A DNA stretch of 63,144 nt, filler included, from Rozella allomycis CSF55 (lineage: Eukaryota): assembly GCA_000442015.1 (NCBI GenBank). It is 12 parts of 12 records of this genome, joined end to end, with 100 filler letters (N's around TTAATTAATTAA, not from the genome) between each part and the next. Parts side by side here need not be neighbours in the genome. Positions count along the whole stretch, not along the records: positions 53,456 to 58,095 come from KE560370.1; 11 more parts are not named here. The stretch is one strand, 5' to 3'. Of the stretch, positions 3,926 through 62,685 are shown piece after piece. Every line of letters begins with the position of its first letter. The stretch's first letter is position 1. The notes under the pieces are model-generated. The model was given only the letters and a program-made list of their open reading frames with translations. It did no database searches and had not been told where the DNA came from. The position numbers were made by a program, and so were the translations under genes.

Positions 3926-6720
3926 AAGATGCGGGTTGGACGGCTGGTGAAGGCTGTTGGACAGTTCCATGCGAATGTGGAGCGGGATGACCAGAAGAGG
4001 CAGGAGAGGATGGCGCGGGAGCGTATCCAGGCGCTCAAGGCGGATGATGAGGAGGCGTATTTGAAGCTTGTGAGTCAGCAAAAGGATACGCGGATATCGT
4101 TCCTGTTGAAGCAGACGGATGAGCATTTAGCGTCGTTGACGCAGTTGGTGAGGGAGCAGCAGAATGAGTTGGGAGAGATTGAAGAGGAAAAGGAGGAGGA
4201 GTATTTGGGCGATGAGAGTAGGGCTAATTATTATGGAACGGCGCATCGAGTGCAGGAGAATGTTGTTGAGCAGCCGAGTATATTGATTGGGGGTAGACTG
4301 AAGGATTACCAGTTGAAGGGGCTGCAGTGGATGGTGTCGTTGTATAATAACCATTTGAATGGGATCTTGGCGGATCAGATGGGATTGGTAAGGGGATGAG
4401 GGGTGAATAGAATAGGGGAAAACGATACAGACGATTAGTTTGATAGCTTATTTGATGGAGGTGAAGAGACAGAATGGACCGTTTTTGATTATTGTTCCGC
4501 TTTCAACGATGACTAATTGGAGTTTGGAGTTTCAAAAATGGGCGCCTAGTATTAAAAAGGTTGATTATAAAGGATCGCCTAATGTGAGAAAGGGGCTGCA
4601 GGGGGAGATAAGAAAGATGAATCCGAATGTGATAATAACGACGTTTGAGTATATAATAAAGGATAGACAGTTTCTGTCAAGGATTAAGTGGTTGTATATG
4701 ATAGTGGATGAGGGACATAGGATGAAGAATGCGCAGAGCAAGTTGTCGTCGACTATTGGACAATACTATTCAACAAAGTATAGATTGATATTGACTGGGA
4801 CTCCACTGCAGAACAATTTACCAGAATTGTGGAGTTTGTTGAATTTTGTGTTACCGAAAGTGTTTAGTTCGATAAAGTCGTTTGATGAATGGTTTAATGC
4901 GCCGTTTGAGAATACAGGGGAGAGATTGGAGTTGAATGAAGAAGAGACGTTGTTGATTATTAGAAGATTGCATAAAGTTTTGAGACCATTTCTGTTGAGA
5001 AGATTGAAAAAGGATGTTGAATCAGAGTTGCCTGATAAAGTTGAGAGAATAATAAAATGTAAATTGTCGGCGTTGCAGATTAATTTGTATGAGAGTATTA
5101 AACAGAAATCCAGTTTGGAAAAGAAAGTGTAATTTAATTTTGAGAGTTTAAAAGTGGATTTAGGAAGTTGAATAATACGATTATGCAGTTGAGAAAGATT
5201 TGCAATCATCCGTTTGTGTTTAATGAAGTTGAGAGCCAAATGAACCCACACAAAGTTAACAATGAATTGTTGTACAGAACGAGTGGTAAATAATCTTTTA
5301 ATATAAGAAAAGGAAAGTTTGAGTTGTTGAGAAGAATATTGCCAAAGTTTCAAGCCAGCAATCATAAAGTATTGATATTTTTCCAAATGACGCAAATTAT
5401 GACTATAATGGAAGATTTGTTGAATATGATTGGAATTAAATATTTGAGATTGGATGGATCAACTAAATCTGAAGATAGAACGAAATGTTTAGAATTGTTT
5501 AATAAAAGTGATGAATTCAGTGTATTTCTATTATCAACGAGAGCTGGTGGATTAGGTAATTGAGTTGTTAAAGTGTTAACAATAGGTAATTGAGTTGTTG
5601 AAGTGTTAAAAGGTTTAAATTTACAATCTTCTGATACTGTTATAATATTTGATTCAGATTGGAATCCACACCAAGATTTACAAGCACAAGATAGAGCGCA
5701 TAGAATTGGACAAACAAAACAAGTGAGAATATTTAGACTTGTGACATCCAATTCAATTGAAGAAGTTATTTTAGCTAAAGCGCAATACAAATTAAACTTA
5801 GATGGGAAGATTATTCAAGCTGGAAAATTTGATAATAAATCTACAAATGAAGAAAGAGAAGCAATGCTAAGATCTTTACTTGACTCTGAAAGAAACAATA
5901 ACAATTCTGAAGACATTTTTGATGATGATGAATTAAATGATATTATAGCAAGAAATGATTCTGAATTAGATTTATTCAAAAGAATCGATAAAGAAAGAAA
6001 TGAATTTGATAAACAAACTTGGAATTTCAATGGTGATAAACCAAGGTACACTATCAATTGTTTAAACAAAATAGATTAATTGGTCAAGATGAATTGCCTC
6101 AAGTATTGTTAAACATTCCTGAAGAACAACCTCAAACTAATGATCTATTAGATTACAACAATGGAAGAAGAAAGAGAAAGACAATCAGCTATGATGAAAA
6201 CAACGATGATCCCTTTGATTCCAATCCAACTGAATCTGCTATAGAATCACAACAAGGTAGTTACGTTATTGACACACCACAAGGTATTGAATCACAACAA
6301 GGGTTAGACAATGAATTTCAACCATCAAAAGTTGCTTCTGATTTTAATAATCCACGAGACTTATTCTACGCTATAAACGCTGATCTCTACGCTTCAATCG
6401 ATTCATTCTCGTAACTAATTCTCTCTTACTCAAATAGTGGCCATCGTCGTATCGATCCTTTTATTATTCTTCCAAACGCTTCTGATTATCCAGATTACTA
6501 TGAAATCATCAAAAATCCTATCTGTTTATCCGACATTAAATACAAGGCCGACAATAACTTGTACTCTTCTTTTGATTCTCTCAAATCTGATCTCTGTCTC
6601 TTGTTTGACAATGCTCAAATTTACAATCAAGATGGCTCCATTATATTTGATGATTCTGTTGCACTAAAGAATATTGTCTTGAAATACTTTCCCACAAAAC
6701 TCAAGTTGAAAATTAAATAA
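3926..6720 (+). CDS. SNF2: SWI/SNF-RSC ATPase SNF2/STH1/BRM family, 5'-truncated
   Basis: HSA/post-HSA ([17 protein letters not shown]), [54 protein letters not shown], SnAC and a C-terminal bromodomain ([12 protein letters not shown]...NAQIYN). Introns at 4388-4415, 5129-5154, 5286-5312, 5556-5612, 6046-6074 and 6411-6437. Confidence 0.95.
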
Positions 6721-25630: not shown

Positions 25631-25927
25631 TTATTTACTCCATGGAGGTTTATTTTCATCATTCAAAAACTCCAATTCTTCTTTCGTAGAAACCCTGCCT
25701 AAATATCCGTTTCGATGAGGAAACCGCCCAAACTTTTCTATAACTTTGCGATGCTGAATGGCGTGATCCAAGCACACGTTAAAAAACGTTTTAAACTCTC
25801 CATTCTCCTGCTCGAGTCCCAGTTTTGTAAACAGATCCACAGCAATGTTTTGCATTTCAATATCTTCTGAATGTTCGAATGGCAGGTACATGAACATTTT
25901 GTGGAATGGAGTGGGTAGATCTTTGTC
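25631..25927 (-). repeat. 3' part of a second DUF924 copy (likely allele)
   Basis: Near-identical to 25955-26251; n at 25928. Confidence 0.8.
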
Positions 25928-25954
25928 NTATGTTAAAAAAGTTTAAATCGCTAT

Positions 25955-26572
25955 TTATTTACTCCATTGAGGTTTATTTTCATCATTCAAAAACTCCAAT
26001 TCCTCTTTCGTAGAAACCCTGCCCAAATATGCGTTTCGATGAGGAAACCGCCCAAACTTTTCAATAACTTTGCGATGCTGAATGGCGTGATCCAAGCACA
26101 CGTTAAAAAACGTTTTAAACTCTCCATTCTCCTGCTCGAGTCCCAGTTTTGTAAACAGATCCACAGCAATGTTTTGCATTTCAATATCTTCTGAATGTTC
26201 GAATGGCAGGTACATGAACATTTTGTGGAATGGAGTGGGTAGATCTTTGTCTGACTTTAAATTGACCGCCTTTTGGGCGAGTTGGAGGGCTAATGAATCG
26301 AAGGAGAATGCTTTGGCCGTGTTTCTGTAAATGTTTCTTGGAAACTGATCGAGAAGAATGATAATTGCTAAAATGTCGAGAGGCTTTGTGTATGCTTGAA
26401 GTGAATTTGAAGCATCCGGTTTTGAGAATGATAACAAGTCTTGTTTGAAGAGGCTGGCTATTTGGTCGTCGAATTCCTTGTTGGAAGCGAACCAAGATTG
26501 TGATATGCTGGGAATGTTTTTGAGGTCTTTGAACCAAAAGGTGAGAATTTTTTGTGTTAACTCTTTTGACAT
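25955..26572 (-). CDS. DUF924 family protein, intronless
   Basis: ILTFWF...WF...IILLDQFPRNIYR...FMYLPFEHSED...IEKFGRFPHRNAYLGRVSTKEE. Confidence 0.92.
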   Translation of the reverse strand: MSKELTQKILTFWFKDLKNIPSISQSWFASNKEFDDQIASLFKQDLLSFSKPDASNSLQAYTKPLDILAIIILLDQFPRNIYRNTAKAFSFDSLALQLAQKAVNLKSDKDLPTPFHKMFMYLPFEHSEDIEMQNIAVDLFTKLGLEQENGEFKTFFNVCLDHAIQHRKVIEKFGRFPHRNAYLGRVSTKEELEFLNDENKPQWSK

Positions 26573-26578
26573 TTGAGN

Positions 26579-26824
26579 GTAAATGTTTCTTGGAAACTGA
26601 TCGAGAAGAATGATAATTGCTAAAATGTCGAGAGGCTTTGTGTATGCTTGAAGTGAATTTGAAGCTTCCGGTTTTGAAAATGATAACAAGTCTTGTTTGA
26701 AAAGCATTGCTATTTGGTCGTCGAATTCCTTGTTGGAAGCGAACCAAGATTGTGAAATACTGGGAATGTTTTTGAGGTTTTTGAACCAAAAGGTGAGAAT
26801 TTTTTGTGTTAACTCTTTTGACAT
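26579..26824 (-). repeat. 5' part of a second DUF924 copy (likely allele)
   Basis: Near-identical to 26327-26572; n at 26578. Confidence 0.8.
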
Positions 26825-26945
26825 TTAAGAATTCTCCAACGTACAATTTTGTCACTTAATTTTTTTACATAATTAAAAAACATTTCACAATAATTTTTAC
26901 ATTTATTTTTGAACAACCTTTTTCGATTGTACAGACCCTTGTCGA

Positions 26946-29081
26946 ATGATTCCCAATAAACCACCCGAGCTTGTCGAGACAGCGAAGCCTGTGCATGTGA
27001 AAAACAAGCAGCCTGCGGCTATACAAGTGACAGCTGAGCAAATTTTGCGAGAAGCCAAGGAGCGGCAGGAGGCTTTGGAGCGACGCCCTAAGCAGCGTAT
27101 GATAGATGGCGAAGAGTTGTATGAGATGCGGTATTTGCAGAGAAAAGCGTTTGAGGACAAGTTGAAGGCGAACCGTATGGCTATAGGGCTGTGGTTGAAG
27201 TATGCGCGGTGGGAGGAGGACCAGCGAGAGTTGGTTCGTGCGAGATCGGTGTATGATAGATGTTTGCAGATGGATGCGCGCAGTGTGACTGCGTGGATAA
27301 AGTATACGGAGATGGAGATGCGGTTTAAGAATATAAACCATGCGAGGAATTTGTATGATAGGGCGGTGGCAGTGTTGCCTAGAGTTGATCAACTGTGGTA
27401 CAAGTATGCGTATATGGAGGAGATGCTTGGGAATGTGAATGGCGCTAGACAAGTGTTTGAACGTTGGATGGAATGGGAGCCAGATGAAAATGCATGGAAC
27501 GCTTATATTAAATTTGAAAGGAGATATGAAGAGATTGAAAAAGCAAGAAAAGTTTTTGAAAGGTAAAAAGAAATAAAAGATTTGATAGATTTGTGTTTGT
27601 GCATGCGAAACCAAAGAACTGGATTAAATATGCGAGGTTTGAAGAAGAGAATAGAAATTTTGAGGGTGCTAGGAATGTTTTTGAAAGGGCAGTTGAATAT
27701 TATGGAGATGAATTTATGGATGTAAAGTTGATTGTAGAATTTGCGAAATTTGAGAGTAGAATGAAAGAGATTGACAGAGCCAGGGTTATCTTCAAGTATG
27801 CGTTGGAAAAAGTGAATAAAGAAAAGGCAGAAAGTTTGTATAAAAAATATTCTCAATTTGAAAAACAATTTGGAAATAGAATTGAAATAGAAAAAGTAAC
27901 GTTGGACAAGAGAAGATTGGAATATGAAGAATTATTGAAAGAGAATGAAAAGAATTACGATGTTTGGTTTGACTATGCGAGATTAGAAGAGGCGAATAAA
28001 GATAGTGTGAAGATTAGAGAAATTTATGAACGAGCGATTTCACAAATTCCACCAACAGCTGAAAAGAAGCATTGGAGACGCTACATTTTCCTTTGGATTA
28101 ATTACGCCATTTATGAAGAAATAGAAAACAAAGATTTTGATAAAGCAAAAGAAATTTATCAAACTTGTTTAAAATTAATTCCTCACAAACAATTCACTTT
28201 TGCCAAAGTTTGGATTTTGTTTTCTAAATTTTTAATTAGAAGAAAAGATTTCATCTCAGCAAGAAAAAATCTTGGCTTAGCAATTGGTAAATTTCTTAAT
28301 CTATTTCTGAAATTTAGGGATCTGTCCAAAAGATAAAATTTTTAAAGCTTACATTGAATTAGAATTGAAAATGAGAGAATTCGATCGTTGTAGAATTTTA
28401 TATGAAAAATACATTCAATGGAATCCAGCAAATTCTTACGCTTGGATTAAATACGCTGAATTAGAAAAACTTTTAGGTGACAATGATAGATCTAGATCTA
28501 TTTTCACCCTGGCAATCTCTCAAAAAATTTTAGATCGTCCAGATGTTGTTTGGAAATCTTTTATTGACTTTGAAATTGAAAATGAAGAATTTGATAACGT
28601 TAGATCTCTCTATGAAAGATTATTATCGGAAACTGAACATGTCAAAGTTTGGATCTCTTTCGCTAATTTTGAAAAAGAAATTTCTCAATTTGAAAATGCT
28701 AGAAATATTTATGAAAGAGCTTATTCCTCTCTCAAAGATCAAGCTTTAGATGAACAAGTAAATCTTTATTTTCTCTTTCATTTTTAGCGTTTAATTTTAT
28801 TGGAGGCTTGGAAAGAATTTGAAAATTTCGTAGATCCAAATTCTGAATTTTCTCAATCTGTTCAATCTAAATTTCCTAAAAAAGTTAAAAAGAGAAGAAA
28901 AGTTGTCACCGATGATGGCCTGGATGCTGGCTATGAAGAATACTACCACTACATCTTTCCTGACGACAGAAAAGAAATGCCTCATCTTAAATTACTTGAA
29001 ATGGCCCACAAGTGGAAGAAAGAGAAAAATGTTGAAAAGCCAAAAGTGGAAGTTGAAGGAGTTAACAATGTGGAAAACTAA
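26946..29081 (+). CDS. CLF1: Pre-mRNA splicing factor CLF1/Crooked neck (HAT repeats)
   Basis: VKNKQPAAIQVTAEQILREA, ARNLYDRAVAVLPRVDQLWYKY, KKHWRRYIFLWINYA, PHKQFTFAK, EEYYHYIFPDD, LKLLEMAHKWK; 3 introns. Confidence 0.96.
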
Positions 29082-29167
29082 TCTAAATATTATCTTTAAA
29101 TCACTTTTATTTATCATCTTTGTTCTATTTACACTTTTTCATTTCATTTCTTCTTGAACATCTTCTC

Positions 29168-40529: not shown

Positions 40530-42600
40530 TTAAGTGGACTATTATTCGGAGTGAAATATAGCGAAAGAGGTAAATTGATGAGATCTTCATACTGCAAAGA
40601 AGAAATATCTATATTAAAGTTATATTCATTTGCCACTTTGAATAGGCCTTTAAAGAAGTTGCTTGAATACTTTTCTACTTCTTTTCGATCCTTAAAAGAA
40701 AAAATAGATAAATATTAAAGATCACATGTCCATGAACTACATATATTATTTAAATAATCTATTAGAATATCTTTTCGAGAATTGTTACAATTAATAAAAA
40801 TGTTTTTATACCAATTAATATTGAAGATGTCTATAAACATGCTTATATACAAATATCCAATAAACCCAAACCTCCCAAACTTTTGGATAAACACGCATTT
40901 TTATAACCTATTTTTCCATTCTTATTATTCCATAGAAATTTTCAAATCATTTTCTTGTATTCAATAAGAAACTCATTTGGCAAAGAAATTACTCGCAATA
41001 GATATAATAATTTTGGCAGAATACATGAATTTAGAAATAAAACCTTTCCTTTTAGGGACAAAGATTTTTGCAAAGATAAAGAGTTTTTGTTTTAGCCAAT
41101 TTATTATTTAAGAAATTTGTAATATAATTTTCATTATTTAGATTTAGAGGGAAACCTAGAGAAATTAAAGTTTCATCCTCTTTTATTTCGGTAAAATTAA
41201 AATTACAATCATCGAAAATATTTTTGGAATCATTTGAAAATAGCAACAATTTAGATTTTGGAACACTCAGTTTGGCACCAGAAGCCTTTTCGTGGTTCCT
41301 AAATCCTTTCATTAAAATTTTTAGATCGTTTGAATTAGAAATGAAACAGAAAATATCATCAGCTAAAGAAAATGCCCTTAAATATGAAGATCTAATATTA
41401 AATCCCTTAATGTATTTATCAATAAATCTTAGCAATTGTTCAATCATGAAAAGGTTTAAATGTGGAGACAATGAATCACCTTGTAATAAACCTCTCTCAA
41501 CTGTTGATAGGAATCCATTAATGCTCAGTTTCCCCTTTAAATCTCCTAAATACATTTTAATAAAATCAATAAATCTATTCGAAAAAAATAAAATTGTTTT
41601 AAACATTGACAAAGATAGTCATGATCCACTCTATCATAAGCCTTGTTTTGATCAAACATTAAAAGTGCACCATTCACTTTTCTTCCAGGCTTTCTTGATC
41701 TAACCAAATGTAAACACTCAGAAAGAATCGACACATTATCATATCCATGTCGTCCAGTAACAAATCCAACTTGGGACTCCCCAATTAAAGATGGCATGTA
41801 ATATTAATCTAGCATCAATCAATTTTGAAAACAATCTCTTATCACAATTAATTAGCGAAATCGGCCTACAATTTTTTAATGACATATTGATCATGCTTTT
41901 CTGGGCATGTTTGTCAAAGTCGGATTTGGGTCGGACAGCTCTGGTCGGCGGATCCAAATTCGAATTTTCATTCTTTTTATGAACAAGAGAGAAAATACTT
42001 TCATTGATTGATTTTGGCTTCTCATTTTTGACTAAAATTTCATTAAATAGATCAATAAGAATTCTTGGATACAATTTCCANACAATTTTTTAATGACATA
42101 TTGATCATGCTTTTCTGGGCATGTTTGTCAAAGTCGGATTTGGGTCGGACAGCTCTGGTCGGCGGATCCAAATTCGAATTTTCATTCTTTTTATGAACAA
42201 GAGAGAAAATACTTTCATTGATTGATTTTGGCTTCTCATTTTTGACTAAAATTTCATTAAATAGATCAATAAGAATTCTTGGATACAATTTCCAAATTAC
42301 TTTATAGATTAAATAAGTTAATCCATCATAACCAGGAGAAGAATCATCTCACAGATCGTATCAAAGAATCCATTTTGTCGTACCATTGACAATTTGGACC
42401 CACATGGATCTGATGGTCTTAAGGATCTATAAATAACTCATAGATCTGACAGTTAATGGATTACTGATAATCAAAATGAATATTATAAAAATAACATTCT
42501 CATCGTACTTTTCTTTCCTATCTTTCTTAAACATCTCTTTCTTTACCTTACATGATACCAGAATTAAGTCGTTCTTCTAGCCTTGAACGACACATTTCTT
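40530..42600 (-). mobile_element. Non-LTR retrotransposon (L1/Tx1-like) RT remnant
   Basis: RPISLINCDKRL, QVGFVTGR, DQNKAYDRVDH, GLLQGDSLSP, LADD; frameshifts; boundaries approximate. Confidence 0.88.
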
Positions 42601-45286: not shown

Positions 45287-46519
45287 GTGCATCTCAAAAT
45301 CGTTGTTCCGGACCACCTTACGAAAGGAGTTTTTTCATTCGCTGAGGATGCAATAAATGCGGTATTGGCCGCGCGCCACGGGCAGGAGGGTTGTGCTGGT
45401 GTTGTCAACTTTTTGACTATGTTAATCTCTTATAGGAAACTCTTTATAACTAATGCGGCTATAATTTATGACAACGCAGTCCTGGATCGTGATGTACGTA
45501 CACAGGACATATTCAAAGCCTTGCCATTTTGTACAAAAGAATTTCGTCATTGGAGTCAAAATGATTGTAAACGGCAATATCAGGCACTGCGTGAACATCC
45601 GTCGTTCAATTTTGAAAATATTCAAAATGAAAAGCTTTCCGAGTTACTCTCCCAGTTGCGAGAATTTGGTGCCATAGTACATAAAACACAAATCGATGAA
45701 AATGCGAAAGTGTTGCAGAGATTGGAACGGATCGAGAAGAAGTTGGCCATAGATCAAACATCAAGCAGTGAGACTCATTTCAATCCATGGACGCCCTTGA
45801 AAACCAAGTCGCGACCATCGTCCCCGGTTGTAGCGCGGGTTCCCTTGCCGTCATTGGAGTCGCCACGGAAATCAGAGTCTCCAAAACGACGCCGATTCAA
45901 ACCAAATCCAAACAATCCACGACGCACATGCTTGGAGATTTTGAATTTAGGTACAGATGACAATCAACTTTCGACAAAGTCCAATTCACAATTTACAAAA
46001 CCTGCGGCGCCCACAGCGCAAGCGACGTTACGCCAGGATAAGAAAGTTGATAGCAATGCCTCACCTCAAAGCGGATGGTCAGGTAAAGTCCCTTTGCTCT
46101 CTGATCCCATCCTACAATCTGGTCCACAAAAGTGTACAACGGTTAAAGATATGTGGAATGCGTATGCGTATGGTTCTGACAGTTATCCTCCCTGGCGCAA
46201 ATTGGAGGAGATGTATGGTGCTAAATGGAGACGTAGCGGAACGTCACGCACGACGTGGTCGCGCATGATAAAAGGAATTATTATGCTTGAAGTTATTTTC
46301 TTTGAGCATGGCGACAAAATGCTGGCATTTGTGGAAACCGAATTAAACATTCAAACATTGACTCAGTTGAATAAAGTGGTTAATGACTGGCATGACTGGC
46401 CAAATTCTATAAAATCTATTCGCGATGAAAGTAAAAGACTCAAAGAAAAGTCGAAACATATCATTGAATGGCTTTTGGTTAGAGCTGGGGGACTGAACAC
46501 CTCCAAAAGTCAGACATAG
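45287..46519 (+). CDS. GCR1_C-domain protein; 3' half of a CryptonF/Ndc10-like gene
   Basis: TTVKDMWNAYAYG---PPWRKLEEMYGAKWRR---RTTWSR (GCR1_C); N-terminal FLTMLISYRKLFITNAA...HPSF resembles the end of the Crypton/Ndc10 domain; intronless; truncated by the contig start. Confidence 0.75.
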   Translation: MHLKIVVPDHLTKGVFSFAEDAINAVLAARHGQEGCAGVVNFLTMLISYRKLFITNAAIIYDNAVLDRDVRTQDIFKALPFCTKEFRHWSQNDCKRQYQALREHPSFNFENIQNEKLSELLSQLREFGAIVHKTQIDENAKVLQRLERIEKKLAIDQTSSSETHFNPWTPLKTKSRPSSPVVARVPLPSLESPRKSESPKRRRFKPNPNNPRRTCLEILNLGTDDNQLSTKSNSQFTKPAAPTAQATLRQDKKVDSNASPQSGWSGKVPLLSDPILQSGPQKCTTVKDMWNAYAYGSDSYPPWRKLEEMYGAKWRRSGTSRTTWSRMIKGIIMLEVIFFEHGDKMLAFVETELNIQTLTQLNKVVNDWHDWPNSIKSIRDESKRLKEKSKHIIEWLLVRAGGLNTSKSQT

Positions 46520-48540: not shown

Positions 48541-48618
48541 TATTTTAAAGTGGCAATACTATCTTTTGAGTTTCCAATGAATACTCTTCATAGTCATAAA
48601 TGGCATCATTATTATGGA

Positions 48619-48696
48619 TGTTAAACCAAATGAAAAAAATGGACGTACCAGGGTAACGAAAAAATATATTTACGAAATTTATCTTTCGACTTATCA
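48619..48696 (-). repeat. 3' LTR, 78 bp
   Basis: Direct repeat of 50793-50869, with about 7 substitutions and 1 indel by hand alignment. Confidence 0.88.
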
Positions 48697-50792
48697 TTAT
48701 TATTCTTTCTTTGATTTTCGTCATTAAATATATTAATGCTAATTTGATCATCACGTTGATCCTCAATTTGATTGAAATGTTCGTTCTTTTCATTTCGTAT
48801 TGAGTTCCCATTTTCTTAAATCTCACTTTCAACCATCTCATCAAGTTCTACGAATCGGGCTGTAATTCGCTTCTCAATAAATTCTAAGCTGCGACTTGTG
48901 AATATTTTATACGTTTCCAATTCGAGAACTTTGTACCCTTTTGACTCATTGTCATTGCCAGGGAGAACACATCTCTTTGTATTTGGCTTCAATTTTGCTA
49001 TCACGGATAAAGGTAGCTTCGTAAAGCAATTCGCCGCAAATGAGACACATCTTTGCTTCATAAAATGCCACATAAAGAATTTTTGTTTTCCCCAAGACTG
49101 CTTTTTTATGGATTGCGATTTTGAAGATAAACAACTGACTGAACCATTTCATCCCAGTACTCTATTAGTATTCCACTCTAGATAAGGAGGCATGGTTCTG
49201 TTTTTTCTCTCAGCCACACCATTTTGTTGTGGACAATAATCAACAGTATACTGTCTCATTATGCCATGTTTGTTCCACAACTTTATCCATCTTTGACTTC
49301 TAATTTCTTTCGCATTGTCACTTATAATTTTCTTAGTTTGTATATTTATTGAATTTGTAAACTGCTTTTGAAAATTCTCAAATACTTCAAATGCATCACT
49401 CTTATTTTTTAAGGTGTAAACATGACACATCCTTGAATAATCATCAATAAATGTAATGAAGTATTTTTGCTCGTTATCCGAATCTTGGAATGGTCCACAA
49501 ATGTCCATATGTATCCACTCCAAAATTGCTGCTGCTCTACTTTCTTTCTTTGGAAACTTTCCATGAGCCATTTTTCCTTGGATACAAATTTTACATTTTT
49601 CATCACAACCCATCTTATCAATTTTTGTCAATCCCTCTACATTTTCAAATTTACTAAGCTCTTTTAATCTTTCTACATTTATATGACCAAATCTCTCATG
49701 CCAGATATTTACCATCTTTTCACTTACCATATTCTCTTTCCTTTGATTTGCCTTTACTAACATCATCGCCTTATTTATCTTAATGTTATTAATATTAATT
49801 TCATGTTCCTCTTTGCCATTCCCTTTTTTAAAACCATTTATCATCAAAAAACTCCGCTGTACAATTTCGCTGTTTTGTAAATTCTGAAAACTAAAAACAA
49901 CTTGGCATTAAGTTGAGGGACATGTAGTACATTTTCGAAAAATTCTTTGATGATATCACCTCTTCCAGCTGCTTTCACTAACCTTGAGTTTGCTGTCTGG
50001 ACATCAACATTGTTGACCGTCGAATAATTTATCATATTAGATTTTTCTTAGGTAAAATGCGCTGACGCACCAGCACTCACGACAAAAAAATTTGAATGAT
50101 CATTTTTTCTCTATATTGATGCTTGTAATGTCCGGCCTTCTTACAGTTGTAACATACTACATCAACCTTATTAACTTTTTTTTCTCTGGCTTGCTTTTAT
50201 TCATACATGTCAGTCAATTTCCTATCATGTTCTAAAACAAAACTATTAACGGTTTCACATCCCATGTCTATAAAATCACTGCGGGTTTCTAACCTCGTAA
50301 TTAAGCTCATGAATTTTCGTGGCAAACAATTCAAGAACAGAATGTTCCTTATGACTGGATCCAGCTCAACTTCATTCTCCTTCATTATTCTTGACGCTAT
50401 CTCAAATTCCACAATAGATTGCTCCACTGACTTACCTCATAACTTTATCAACGATTTCACTGCCTGCACTAGTGCACTTCCGCTATTCTTTCCATGCGCC
50501 TTTTCCAGTGCTGGCCGAGCTGCTCCGGATGACTTTGACTTCCTGGTGTGCTCCAGCTGCGTCGCGGACACGAAGAGATTATTGTCGCAAGTTCTTCAAG
50601 ATCTTGTTCAATTTCTTCTTTTGTAAAGACTCCATTCTCTTTCTTTTGTTCTTCTTCGATGTTATTCTCCATCGGTTTACACACAACTTGCCATAGTTTC
50701 TTGCTTACCAGAATGGCTCTTGCATAAAGTAACCAGGACGAGTAGTTGTCAATATTGAGCGTCGGTATTTTATTTCAGCGGGGCCCATAACT

Positions 50793-53455: not shown

Positions 53456-54389
53456 AATTTTAAAATTACATTTCGACATTCCAAAAGAATTTTTTATATT
53501 TGAGAGGAGCCACGTCTCTGGTTTAGCGCCAAGAGTTCCAATAGAAGAAAATTGACAAATCAATTGATCTGTTCTCTTTACGTTCTCCAGGTACTTTGAA
53601 AGCAATTTAGAAAGTTTAAAGTGCCCATAGGAATTTAATAGATTGTTTTTATGCCTTCCTGGAATAGATGGTATCAGCCTTGACAAATTAATAATAAAAG
53701 GAGTGTTTTTACTTTTATCGAGCTAAAGTCATATTGCATAATCTTTTCTGCGTATGACTTGAAAGCAAAGGGGTAGCCTTGAAAATAATCTTCCAAGTCT
53801 AATTGAAAGGGTGATTTCTTTGATAAATCGCTTGGTTTCTTTAGACTCAATTGAGGAGTAATAAAAACCATCTGTGTTTTATTTCTTTGAAAATAAATTT
53901 ATGCTTATTACTTCCAATCACTTTCAATTAAGTTCGCCGTGTGGATGATTACAGTTAGTTTATCATTATGATCGAAAATGAACATGGTCTATTTTCTTAG
54001 TACAATTTTGATACTTTGGTATGATGACACCCATAATTAAACATTAGATGCGGTTCTATAAATTTTATATATGAATCATATTCCCCTGAGGAACCTTTCT
54101 GTCCATATACTATAACTCCTTCAACTGAATTCTCTAACTGATTGTATAACCAATCCACATCAACCATAAAATTGATTTGTATCATAAATTTGGGATTTAT
54201 CTGTTTGAAAATTAGTTTCAAGTTAATTGAAGATTCATTTCTCATTGGAGGACCATCCAGAACGTCGATCCATCCAACACGACAACCATCTGGTAAAATA
54301 GTACACCCGGGATGTTTTAGAGTCTTAGCTTTCTTTAAAACGTGATCTTCATCTCCACTGGATAGTATTTCTATAATTTCGTTTTCCAT
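53456..54389 (-). CDS. TDP1: Tyrosyl-DNA phosphodiesterase 1, 3'-truncated
   Basis: NFMVDVDW, YGCHHTK|TM, IHTANLIESDW-NKTQ, FQLDLEDY, DFSSIK|SRLIPSIPG, CQFSSIGTLG. Confidence 0.92.
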
Positions 54390-54465
54390 GAAAAGCCACT
54401 GCTGAATGAAGGCAAGAAAGTTCAATTAATAAGAAATTTCATTAACAATTGCTAATTAAAGAAAA

Positions 54466-55486
54466 TTAATTTATTATCTCATTAAATTTTGTGCATTTAA
54501 AATCATTCCAGATCTTTGAAAAACACATTACACTTTCTGGCTTCTTGAATGTCCAGTAATGGTCAAAAGCAATAAAAGTTCCAGCTAAATATTGCACAAA
54601 CATTATTACTGCAAAATAAATGATTAAACAAATCAAATGAGCAATCATGCTGGTAAAAATACAACTTCAAATCGTTCGATTGCATACTTTCATATAAAAA
54701 GAAAGAAATATTGATTCCCAGAACTGCAAAAGGGTACCAAAAAATTAGAAAGTGATAATTACATACCAGGTTGTGTCATACATTCCTTGAGACTTTTGCA
54801 ATATTTCATTAGACTCATCGGGATACTCGTTTCCAAAGAAAATAAGTTGTGATAGTCCAAGCAACCCCATTCCCCTGAAGTCTGTAGCGGGATCTTTTCC
54901 TTGAAATCCCAAACTTTTCCAGTGACTTCCAATTCTTTGATACTCTTCGCTAAAATGAATGTCCCAAAGTAATTTCAACATCTCTTCGTGCTCCGCATTT
55001 CCAGACTGAAATTTGGTGTTTGCCGTGTCGTTAATTTTTTTCATTAGGCTTTCAAACAAAGATAATTTGTGAGTGGCATCCAAAAGGGATTTTCTGGTAC
55101 CGATCTAACATCAAATAAGGAGCCAAATTACACTTAAACTCTTTGCTATCGAAAATTCTCGTATGATATTTTCATCCCAGTTAGAAACACATTTACTGTT
55201 TAGCGATATTTTCAATAATCAAGAAGCTACAATGTTACTTGAAATATTTTTGAACGCGGTAAATAGTTTTCTTTTAAAAAGAAATAGGTAAATTACCTAA
55301 CACGAGTATTTCATTTGGTGTTGCAACATTTTTCGAAGTGCTTAGATATCTGTCCACAAAATGTTGCCGAGAAATGAGATAGATCAAAAAGCGGACCTTT
55401 GATATGATTCCGTCCAAATACGTGTGAAATCTGAATAAGTAAAACACATAAATGAAATCCAATATTGCAAAAAAATTTTCGATCAT
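54466..55486 (-). CDS. ELMOD: ELMO/CED-12 domain protein (ELMOD)
   Basis: HEEMLKLLW...WKSLGFQGKDPATDFRGMGLLGL...W|YPFAVLGINIS...FDHYW---PESVMCF; 5 introns, two apparently GT-TG. Confidence 0.9.
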
Positions 55487-59859: not shown

Positions 59860-60995
59860 CCTCAAGCAAAAGACATTGGAGAAGTATTGCATACAGATTG
59901 GTGTGGGCCAATGCAAGTGGAAACGAAAAGTGGAAAGAGGTATGTGCATGGTGTCATTTATAATTTTTTTAAGAATGTGTTTGATAAGATTGTTGAAGGG
60001 AAAAGCTGAAGCTAAAGTTACATTAAGAGAAATCATTACATTTATTGAAGCTTAGTCAGGACGGAAGGTCAAACTGTTAGAAGCGATAGAGGGGGAAGTG
60101 TGTTGATGGGGAATTCAAGAAATATTTTAGAGAAAAGGGGATCATACATCATTTGACAGACAAATACACACCGGAAATGAATGGAACGCTGAACTGAAAC
60201 ATGGTTTATTGATGGATGCGGCACGTTGTTTGTTGAGGCGAGCAGGATTACCAGACACGTGCTGGGGAGAGATGGTGAATATTATGTGCAAAATCGGTCA
60301 CCAACCAGCAAACTAGGAAACATAACACCCGTGGAAGCATTTACAGGCACGAAACCCTCGGTGGCACATTTAGGAACAATAGGGACAACATGTTTCGTCT
60401 ATATTCCGATTCTCCGAAAATGAAAAGACAAAAATTAGACGAGCACACAGAGGTGCACATTTTAGTTGGTTATGACTTATCCGAAAGAAATTTTAGATTA
60501 CGAGTTGGAAAGACAAGTAGAGTAATTGTATCGATCCATGTTCAATTTACTAATAATCATCAAGAACTAAACAATATGAAGCACACNAGTTATGACGTAT
60601 CCGAAAGAAATTATAGATTACGAGCTGGAAAGACAAGTAGAGTAATTGTATCGACTCATGTTCAATTTACTAATAATCATCAAGAACTAAACAATATGAA
60701 GCACACAAGTTTAGAAGAAGATTTATTGAACAATGAAATTGATGCCGAAATTATTATGAATCAAAAAACATCAACAAATAAATTGTATAATTGTAAAGAA
60801 GAATTGAACAAATTATTGGTTAATTCAAATATTCATAGACATAATAAGAATACTGAGGAGAATACGAATGTTGAAAACGAAACCATTCAACCCAGGTAAC
60901 GAAATTTACGAAATTTAGAGCGGAAAGACTATGCCGAATTATTTAACTTCAAAGACGTGGCATTACTAAGTACAGGTAGAACTAACGAAATTCCA
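59860..60995 (+). mobile_element. Copia integrase remnant
   Basis: VLHTDWCGPM, SDRGG, YTPEMNG, QNRSPT, KLDEH...LVGY; stops and frameshifts. Confidence 0.82.
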
Positions 60996-61095: not shown

Positions 61096-62685
61096 CACGG
61101 TGTGGTGACATGTGTGACGTCGCACCCGAATCCACGATCCATTCAACATATTCATTCTCACTGTCACTAATCATCATGGTTCGTTCTTCCTCATCTTCTC
61201 GCATAATCATCGCGATCTCACTCGTCGCTTGATGAATCTTTATCCGCCATATTGGCTTGCTCCTTTGTTTTTGCTTCTCGCCTCGCCTTCCCATTTTCTT
61301 TGGCAGTCAACTTTTTCCAAAGTGGGCAATCAAACTTACGATGTCCTGTTTCATCGCATACGTAGCATCTTCCAGTGTACCACCTCGGTTCTTCGTCCTT
61401 TTGGCTTTCCCGCCTAAAATTCATTGTCTTCACTTGCTTCGTAATCATTGCTACATCTTCTTCCTCCTTGGTTTCTAGTTGATTCATTGTTGTTTGACCT
61501 GCTTTCCATGCCTTTCTCAACTCAGTCGTTCTTGCTTGTGCTTCTTCCCGTTGTGCAATTTGAGATAGGAGGTTCGTTACACAATGAAAGTTGTCTCCAT
61601 CGTCTTCGTTTTCAAACTTCCATTCCAGGTAAAGTTTCTCTTGGTTCTGAGGTAGTAACGTTTGATTCAGCATATTCACAAGTTCATAATCCATCGCCTT
61701 ACCTCCCACATTCTTGCATTCATTGTATACTTCGTCGTATCTTCTTAGGTAATCCGTCAATGGTTTATTCTCTTCTTGATAGAGGTTGTTGATCTTTATT
61801 CGCAGCGAGTTTTGTAGTTGTAGGTCTCGTCTCCCATATTGGTTCTTAAAGAAGGTAACAATCTCACTTGGGTGTCTTATAGTTGGCAAGCNCGTTCTTG
61901 CTTGTGCTTCTTCCCGTTGTGCAATTTGAGATAGGAGGTTCGTTACACAATGAAAGTTGTCTCCATCGTCTTCGTTTTCAAACTTCCATTCCAGGTAAAG
62001 TTTCTCTTGGTTCTGAGGTAGTAACGTTTGATTCAGCATATTCACAAGTTCATAATCCATCGCCTTACCTCCCACATTCTTGCATTCATTGTATACTTCG
62101 TCGTATCTTCTTAGGTAATCCGTCAATGGTTTATTCTCTTCTTGATAGAGGTTGTTGATCTTTATTCGCAGCGAGTTTTGTAGTTGTAGGTCTCGTCTCC
62201 CATATTGGTTCTTAAAGAAGGTAACAATCTCACTTGGGTGTCTTATAGTTGGCAAGCTATCCTTCTCAAAGTGTGTAAGTGTCAATTGTAGCATTGACGC
62301 TATTTGCCTAGCCATCCTCTCACTCCAGTCTCCTTGCTTCATCGCGGTCTCTCTCCCTGAAACCAACCAATCTTCCATTCCTGCTGCCTCAAACGCAGTC
62401 CTCACGTCTTGGTTCCACCTGAACCAACTTCCCTGACCTTCTAACTTCACGAAGGTCTTTTTCCCCAACAGTCTCTCCAGCATAGCTATATTTTCACTTC
62501 CTGGGCTCATAACTCTAAAGTAATTTAAACGAAAACTAATAAATAAACACTTTTAGAGCAGTGAAAAACTTTTTTATTTTATTCAAGGGTCGCATTTATA
62601 CCCCGACCCTGGCTTCTCACTTCTTTCCCGAAATTTCCTTCACACCCTTATTTTTAGGCTTTGCGGCTGTGTTATACCCATAACA
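61096..62685 (-). mobile_element. Copia element 5' part: LTR, PBS, gag, protease
   Basis: Candidate LTR 62514-62685 starting TGTTATGGG; PBS GTTATGAGCCC overlapping the gag ATG at 62510; CYVCDETGHRKFDC; WIVDSGATSHM; duplicated segment across n 61892. Confidence 0.9.

Follow-up and report, generated by a model that had tools for sequence, protein, structure and literature searches.

A predicted GT-TG intron in TDP1 of Rozella allomycis and a putative class of introns with TG acceptors

The third intron of the DNA-repair gene TDP1 of Rozella allomycis, a fungus-like parasite, departs, at the DNA level, from the AG rule for U2-type introns in ending with TTG. Judged on sequence, by far the most probable explanation overall is that the U2-type spliceosome removes a real intron at a UG 3' end, as a productive splice. 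The case appears to belong to a wider pattern, as a gene model with unconstrained intron ends predicts a class of introns ending in TG, and less surely in CG, amounting to about 3% of Rozella introns. TG and CG acceptors as such are already known from Micromonas and human. We found no report on non-AG ends in Rozella in the literature searched, which left most subscription papers outside its scope; the main text of PMC7072748 contains neither GT-TG introns nor Rozella, and the supplementary species tables of PMC7072748 and PMC8476143 may bear on the matter.

The TG-ending intron of TDP1

The window, i.e. the whole stretch of 63,144 nucleotides that was analyzed, consists of contigs joined throughout by N-TTAATTAATTAA-N linkers, and hence neighbors across a linker are not necessarily adjacent in the genome. 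Pfam identifies the gene as TDP1, which has a single copy lying in two contig pieces, C22 (the KE560370.1 part of the window) and C194 (Table 1). A loose end of a contig from the DNA run X8 at 53458 equals the first bases of C194, and the two halves are thus one gene, in which both HxK motifs are present. Public proteins identical or near-identical to it are EPZ37024.1, from a 4640-base contig, and RKP22072.1. Exon 1 returned no homolog in a word-indexed search, and exon 3 by itself matched no solved structure.

Table 1. TDP1 and predicted TG-ending introns; positions are those of the window unless a contig is named
Feature	Position	Strand	Remarks
Contig C22	53456-58095		carries TDP1 5' part
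TDP1 exon 1	54015..54389	-	ends in first catalytic motif HHTK
TDP1 intron 1	53989..54014	-	26 nt, GT-AG, skips an internal AG
TDP1 exon 2	53912..53988	-	
TDP1 intron 2	53885..53911	-	27 nt, GT-AG
TDP1 exon 3	53713..53884	-	ends YDFSSIK
TDP1 intron 3 (predicted TG intron)	53684..53712	-	29 nt, GTAAAA donor, TTG end, phase 0; model posterior 0.85
TG acceptor dinucleotide of intron 3	53684..53685	-	unchanged in X1, X2, X8 contigs
Positions 23-25 of intron 3 (T, A, A)	53688..53690	-	A24 or A25 the putative branch nucleotide; commonest A23 absent
AG nearest to intron 3	53679..53680	-	would make a 34-nt intron, out of frame, beyond usual lengths
AG closing the 119-nt in-frame intron of public models	53594..53595	-	use would delete 30 conserved residues
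TDP1 exon 4	53456..53683	-	cut by contig end; gene runs on into C194
Second TDP1 GT-TG intron (predicted)	C194:2897-2870		28 nt, ends TTG, splits second catalytic motif PHSK/IYCR
ELMOD gene GT-TG intron (predicted)	54738..54766	-	29 nt; unchanged in X1, X2, X8
ELMOD candidate GT-TG intron	54582..54609	-	28 nt, skips AG at 25 nt; less certain
GT-TG intron (predicted)	13921..13949	+	posterior 0.83; model only
GT-TG intron (predicted, weak)	25141..25166	-	posterior 0.52; AG follows at 28 nt

The original prediction placed, on the minus strand, a GT donor after DFSSIK and a TTG end 29 nt further on, before SRLIPSIPG, and the sequence at 53712-53684 reads exactly so. Unspliced RNA stops at a TGA as predicted, after 12 further codons, and the nearest AG, 5 nt beyond the TG, indeed lies in the wrong frame, its use giving a frame shift and a truncated product (137.9 bits against the profile described below); it is the sole AG ending found 20-44 nt from the donor. 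Equally, removal of the 29 nt restores both the frame and the conserved spacing, with YDFSS..IPGR spanning 17 residues after splicing, the same as in 38 of 44 homologs. The donor GTAAAAAC is not of the U12 type, for which the motif is RTATCCTTT, and its GTAAAA start fits the U2-type consensus of Rozella.

For scoring the possible cuts a TDP1 profile was built from 44 of 93 non-Rozella homologs, namely those 380-700 aa long, and applied to all in-frame ends 20-122 nt from the intron 3 donor plus alternative donors. Among the in-frame cuts tested, that of 29 nt at TTG has the top score (241.1 bits), followed by ends at 26 nt (236.7 bits) and 32 nt (234.0 bits) from the same donor. The GC-AG cuts reach 211.0-222.6 bits, the 119-nt GT-AG cut that follows from the two public models 166.7 bits, and the unspliced form 137.2 bits. 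The margin over the neighboring in-frame ends is small (4-7 bits) and homology therefore places TDP1 intron ends to about one codon only. Beyond homology, the assignment of TG as the exact end would be supplied by the terminal G, as only the 29-nt end has a final G among the near in-frame ends within the usual length range, together with the class pattern discussed below. The Pfam TDP1 profile stays in exact register over the intron, exon 3 ending at profile position 191 and the second residue of exon 4 falling on 193. We hold it very probable that the 29-nt TG cut is real and used.

Alternatively, splicing may follow the public models, taking out a 119-nt GT-AG intron and leaving the protein 30 residues short, or may use a different canonical cut (a GC-AG intron with a length of 26, 29 or 59 nt). 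All these cuts are canonical and in frame, and the 119-nt cut is implied by RKP22072.1 and EPZ37024.1 alike; but against the 44 homologs they score 18-74 bits lower, and introns above 33 nt make up only five of 1165 predicted by a model that covered lengths of 18-60 nt. Moreover, both public TDP1 models drop the first catalytic HHTK motif (54015-54110) across a plain 26-nt GT-AG intron, and are thus unreliable here, as is the Rozella annotation of tiny introns in these two entries; we accordingly rate such canonical splicing as quite improbable. Still less credible is that the stretch stays unspliced and that a translational frameshift or U-to-A RNA editing rescues the protein. In the downstream frame the intron has no stop, but read-through would add ~10 residues where the spacing is fixed in 38 of the 44 homologs, and the donor, length and composition resemble those of other Rozella introns. 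We know of no U-to-A editing of mRNA.

The acceptor was checked in Logan contigs (not raw reads), which drop rare variants, from four public runs, all of DNA and from at most three samples, one of them possibly the source of the assembly. Mean word depth is 370 in X1, 214 in X2, 116 in X8 and 10 in X5; the verdict rests on the first three, X5 being set aside for one unplaced difference in its covering contig. At 53684-53686 the contigs of X1, X2 and X8 have no substitution or inserted base, which largely answers the concern, voiced with the original prediction, that a TAG might have been misread as TTG. X2 has a contig identical over 53456-53697 and contigs of both alleles over 53668-53800. 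A second haplotype, present in X8 and one X2 contig, carries 35 differences in 983 nt (~3.5%), and its residue changes agree with RKP22072.1; two changes fall within intron 3 and none at its GT or TTG. Over 837 exon nt the changes between haplotypes comprise 12 that are synonymous and 13 that are non-synonymous, with no stop; taking three quarters of sites to be non-synonymous gives a rough non-synonymous to synonymous ratio of ~0.35. Over the 82 nt of the three introns there are 8 changes, all away from the end dinucleotides, and the sole indel lies in intron 2. This pattern looks like that of a working gene: the single copy, the two HxK motifs, haplotype changes without a stop and unchanged intron ends together suggest that TDP1 is alive. 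In the assembly single Ns often stand beside short local duplications (e.g. L017:2675-2566) and look like assembly artifacts.

Further TG introns are predicted close by. In the second TDP1 case, on C194, the TG cut scores 148.7 bits versus 142.3 for the next cut and aligns without gaps to PHIKTY-type motifs. Two more lie in an ELMOD gene that adjoins TDP1. In the one at 54738..54766 a GT-AC cut 4 nt along would yield the same protein, and there is no canonical in-frame cut near. In the other, the 28-nt TG cut scores 200.9 bits versus 193.4 for the 25-nt AG cut, and the extra residue left by the latter is absent in 19 of 20 homologs, the remaining one being truncated; a 28-nt GC-AG alternative fits the spacing too. 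Position 23 is T in TDP1 intron 3, the second TDP1 TG intron and both ELMOD cases, a departure from the A23 pattern described below that counts against the explanation proposed. The same region also carries two insertions. One, in the second haplotype (X8, X2), lies at 55121-55130 in the 5' part of the ELMOD gene, its loose ends being mutual reverse complements over ~19 nt and overlapping by 8-10 nt, which would suit a DNA transposon or MITE flanked by a target duplication; the other, of 259 nt, lies at 54440-54443 in the short ELMOD-TDP1 spacer of one haplotype (X8, with a loose end also in X1).

A predicted class of non-AG introns

The wider search used a two-strand gene model combining a dicodon exon model, GT or GC donors, intron lengths of 18-60 nt and 16 free intron ends. 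Its EM training set of 679 kb, or 5.7% of the assembly, comprised the window, contigs C500 (210 kb) and C861 (400 kb), and six small contigs. Starting from equal non-AG priors it converged on 1124 AG, 35 TG, 10 AA and 9 CG ends, with 0-2 for each of the others. At posterior >0.5 there are 1165 introns (1113 AG, 33 TG, 8 CG, 8 AA, 2 TA and 1 GT), two of the 33 TG calls having been known beforehand. Lengths are narrowly distributed, with 1144 introns (98%) at 26-31 nt, two shorter, five above 33 nt and none of 34 nt. With equal priors held fixed, TG leads at all three settings (11, 15 and 23 calls) with CG next (4, 6 and 8). Admitting TG gains 110 log-likelihood units, versus at most 24 for any other end alone; on top of TG, CG adds 20.5 and AA 10.1 units, and the rest little. 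As arbitrary ends or donors gain 10-16 units, the contributions of CG and AA are near the noise of the model, and the AA ends (8 calls, one of them above 0.9) were treated as noise. When 35 known introns were given each of seven ends, 26-34 of the 35 were recovered, and thus the model is not blind to ends other than TG. It is not exhaustive, since it missed both ELMOD cases, that gene not having been called. One further control, in which AG replaced the ends of all 59 non-AG calls and the model then made no non-AG call, was left out as circular.

A test based on stop codons only, with neither a codon nor an acceptor model, compared GTAW donors with control motifs. TG rescues the frame in 72 of 325 cases behind GTAW versus 542 of 3319 controls (p = 0.006, the lowest of the 15 non-AG ends), and with longer flanks in 38 of 219 versus 239 of 2069 (p = 0.011); corrected for 15 ends the value is ~0.09, which is not significant. 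In the same test CG is significant in one of two settings. A composition-only test of ends behind GTAA found no TG excess (99 observed versus 104 expected).

Registers against protein families were examined for the 35 of 41 TG or CG calls with flanks of at least 20 aa, of which ten match one Pfam family on both sides. The register is exact in six of eight TG cases (both TDP1 introns, AMP deaminase, PGAP2IP, Sac1 and Atg4) and one of two CG cases (DUF846); TG calls in FHA and HMGL are out by 1 and 6, respectively, and a CG call in CK2-beta by 4. A further predicted GT-TG intron lies just before motif VI of the splicing helicase Prp28/DDX23 (L028:1394-1420; C500:21394-21420), where the TG cut is exact versus solved structures (746, a split codon, 748). 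Counting that of Prp28, seven TG introns in all bring back the exact homologous register. The TG calls are found on C500, C861, C194 and three window contigs, i.e. they are spread and not confined to one low-GC region, and by eye those listed look unrelated to one another, unlike the copies of a single repeat family expected of IE-B introners. Hence, where the original prediction treated the TG acceptor as a single oddity, the data point to a predicted class (33 TG among 1165 introns) and a second case in the same gene.

These patterns bear on two other explanations of the TDP1 acceptor. One is that an AG decayed to TG with poor or no splicing, leaving TDP1 as mutational load in the form of a weak or dead allele. 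In its favor, structural work in yeast describes U at -2 as causing a strong second-step defect (10.1101/212811), and short introns of microsporidia are described as inefficiently spliced (PMC13644364). Against it stand the two TG introns in a single-copy TDP1 with intact catalytic motifs, the TG common to both haplotypes with their synonymous excess, and the TG cases in Prp28, AMP deaminase, Sac1 and Atg4. Furthermore, the non-AG ends (TG 33, CG 8, AA 8, and none for GG, AT or AC) are unlike the haplotype mutation spectrum, which favors AA and GG. We hence regard decay as unlikely, if somewhat less so than the alternatives weighed above, while a partial inefficiency in the splicing of TG introns is quite possible. 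A sequencing or assembly error, with a true TAG or a lost A, can draw on the single Ns beside local duplications in the assembly and on its differences from X1 at a few positions; but the acceptor at 53684-53686 is without change in X1, X2 and X8, and errors would not yield a class specific to TG and CG, leaving this explanation with a negligible chance. The original reading, in which a GT donor pairs with a TG acceptor, has the best support from homology, register and DNA contigs; the original interpretation as a whole holds in part.

The window also holds mobile-element remnants (41052-42348, 45290-46519, 48545-50774, 59860-60995 and 61218-62552), among them reverse transcriptase, copia-like integrase, gag and a GC-richer ORF with a GCR1_C domain. 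A CG call at 60896-60922, which lies in a mobile-element region, is doubtful. An apparently locally duplicated gene at 25631-26855 (-) codes for a DUF924 protein, a family that Pfam describes as bacterial; horizontal transfer or an assembly repeat are possible origins.

Distance, branch site and the splicing machinery

The 990 confident AG introns have A at +3 in 966 and at +4 in 699. In 721 of them (73%) and in 23 of the 33 TG introns an A stands at position 23, counted from the 5' end, versus a background of 32% within introns, and this holds in each AG-intron length class from 26 to 31 nt (54-85%); the test is partly circular, as the model learns A-richness near the 3' end. Where A23 is missing, A24 is more frequent (126/232 versus 195/504). 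The branch consensus forms CTAA, CTGA and TACTAAC are not enriched in Rozella introns, and TTAA and YTRAY are so slightly. The first AG at 26 nt or beyond is used by 981 of the 990 AG introns, and an AG at 20-25 nt is skipped in 179. A TG is skipped on the way to the AG in 17 of 489 introns. All 41 TG or CG calls use the first TG or CG at 26 nt or beyond, and 38 of them lack any AG between 26 and 31 nt. A comparison of TG introns with AG introns whose used site had been taken out shows no difference in AG depletion at 26-35 nt (at 26-31 nt, 3 observed versus 1.9 expected), a test that is uninformative because the comparison set is itself AG-poor. An AG within range is thus almost always the one chosen. 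The view that TG is preferred over a nearby AG in TDP1 calls for a different wording: that AG would give a 34-nt intron, a length out of range and found in none of the 1165 introns. TG rather looks like a fallback within the length window than a competitor that beats AG. Separately, two longer introns consist of two mini-intron-sized units joined at AG/GT, one of 57 nt in an SNF2-type gene (5556-5612, +), which is a near-tandem duplication, and one of 56 nt in Prp8 (L090:1939-1884, -); these could be removed in two steps.

We propose that the branch would be placed at a fixed distance (~23 nt) from the donor by a ruler acting from the 5' end, with A23 as the putative branch nucleotide. The first suitable NG at least 3 nt past the branch (3-8 nt) would then be docked, with AG favored, and UG would be accepted when no AG lies within ~8 nt. 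G(-1) would be kept as it pairs with the intron G(+1), and the contact of A(-2) with the branch A would be relaxed. In the P complex of yeast the partner of G(-1) is G(+1) and that of A(-2) is the branch A, while the conserved loop of Prp18 sits on -3/-4 (10.1101/212811); by analogy, a 3' end at which G is kept and A relaxed fits this geometry. We consider this ruler mechanism reasonably likely.

The major spliceosome is present in Rozella, with normal U2 branch-pairing and U6 ACAGAGA sequences. U2AF1, SF1, Slu7, Fyv6/FAM192A, U2, U6, and the alpha-finger and beta-hairpin of Prp8 all look ordinary. A lost factor (U2AF1, SF1, Slu7, Prp18 or Fyv6) or changed U2, U6 or Prp8 regions were therefore rejected as the cause of the TG ends: all are present and ordinary except for a loop of Prp18. 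A HAT-repeat protein of the Syf1/CRNKL1 splicing-factor type, encoded at 26913-29154 (+), has ordinary GT-AG mini-introns.

Prp18 itself is encoded at C1022:45244-45721 (L087:1561-1752). With yeast as the sole comparison, the first half of its conserved loop is kept, and in the second half TSVGIHAR aligns to MGPINLNER with one inserted residue. To our knowledge the GIH of this loop is near-invariant elsewhere. The same changed loop is found in the public Rozella protein. The search for Prp18 homologs for the loop comparison returned only Rozella's own; scans of metagenomes yielded either no match or five matches that do not read as Prp18. The loop is described as the most conserved part of the protein (PMC5873924). 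That its remodeling is the cause of the relaxed 3' site is speculative and, in our estimate, doubtful; we present the change as a lead to a candidate cause, not as a result. Similarly tentative is the proposal that Rozella has a natural low-fidelity second step, in which a remodeled Prp18 loop would allow ligation 3-8 nt past a branch A at 23 and acceptance of UG or CG.

Comparison with known systems and implications

Earlier work gives Rozella introns a length of roughly 30 nt (PMC6349667) and reports their density (PMC8476143). The closest parallel is the green alga Micromonas, where 34 short AT-rich introns of BOC1 have a TG or CG end, EST data supporting most of them, and IE-B/IE-D introners also show GT-TG ends (PMC3879977). 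The two share short AT-rich introns, the lack of a discernible branch motif and a TG/CG minority. However, the BOC1 introns all lie within a single low-GC region of a chromosome and are RNA-supported, whereas the Rozella cases extend over several contigs and are known from DNA alone; no ruler or factor change is described for BOC1 in the sections of PMC3879977 consulted. In human, TG 3' sites of U2-type introns occur in 36 genes, never as the sole site and always with an AG (PMC2374985), indicating that the major spliceosome can ligate at UG. By contrast, the Rozella TG appears obligate, at ~3% of introns, and is not a TG-AG tandem of the human type, the nearest AG in TDP1 being out of frame and 38 of the 41 TG or CG calls having no AG at 26-31 nt.

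When S. cerevisiae is deprived of Prp18 or its loop, BG 3' sites come into use, including branch-proximal ones; deletion of the loop (S187-I211) relaxes -2 and -1, and Prp18 is regarded as a ruler for the minimum distance from branch to 3' site, which is 10 nt, and 7 nt without it (PMC10711555). Rozella would resemble this state in its predicted UG or CG and branch-proximal ends. The yeast prp18 condition, though, is an error state of mutants, in which minor isoforms, and GG ends as well, appear. Rozella retains a Prp18 altered in the second half of the loop, has a putative distance of 3-8 nt, and shows no GG end at posterior >0.5. Among lineages with tiny introns, myxobolids and Dicyema have a conserved A whose distance to the AG rises with intron length (PMC13644364), and Stentor a conserved A at position 10-11 (PMC9505925), with U2 and U2AF conserved in these lineages with ultra-short introns (PMC13644364, PMC9505925). 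Their 5'-anchored A recalls A23 of Rozella, whereas a non-AG class is not mentioned in the parts of these two papers used here.

The 3' AG is among the most fixed of eukaryotic gene signals, and the human TG sites occur only beside one. Rozella, which stands next to fungi and microsporidia, would thus offer a natural system for studying the choice of the 3' site by distance versus sequence, and for asking if the Prp18 loop governs the minimum branch distance as well as the check at -2. Genes of this kind are miscut in public Rozella gene models, as in TDP1 without its 30 conserved residues, and miscut models can lead astray those who claim that genes were lost or reduced near the fungal base. 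If the proposed low-fidelity second step is true, several hundred obligate non-AG introns in housekeeping genes, including Prp28, would rely on it, and Rozella would represent in nature what the prp18 loop-deletion mutant is in yeast.
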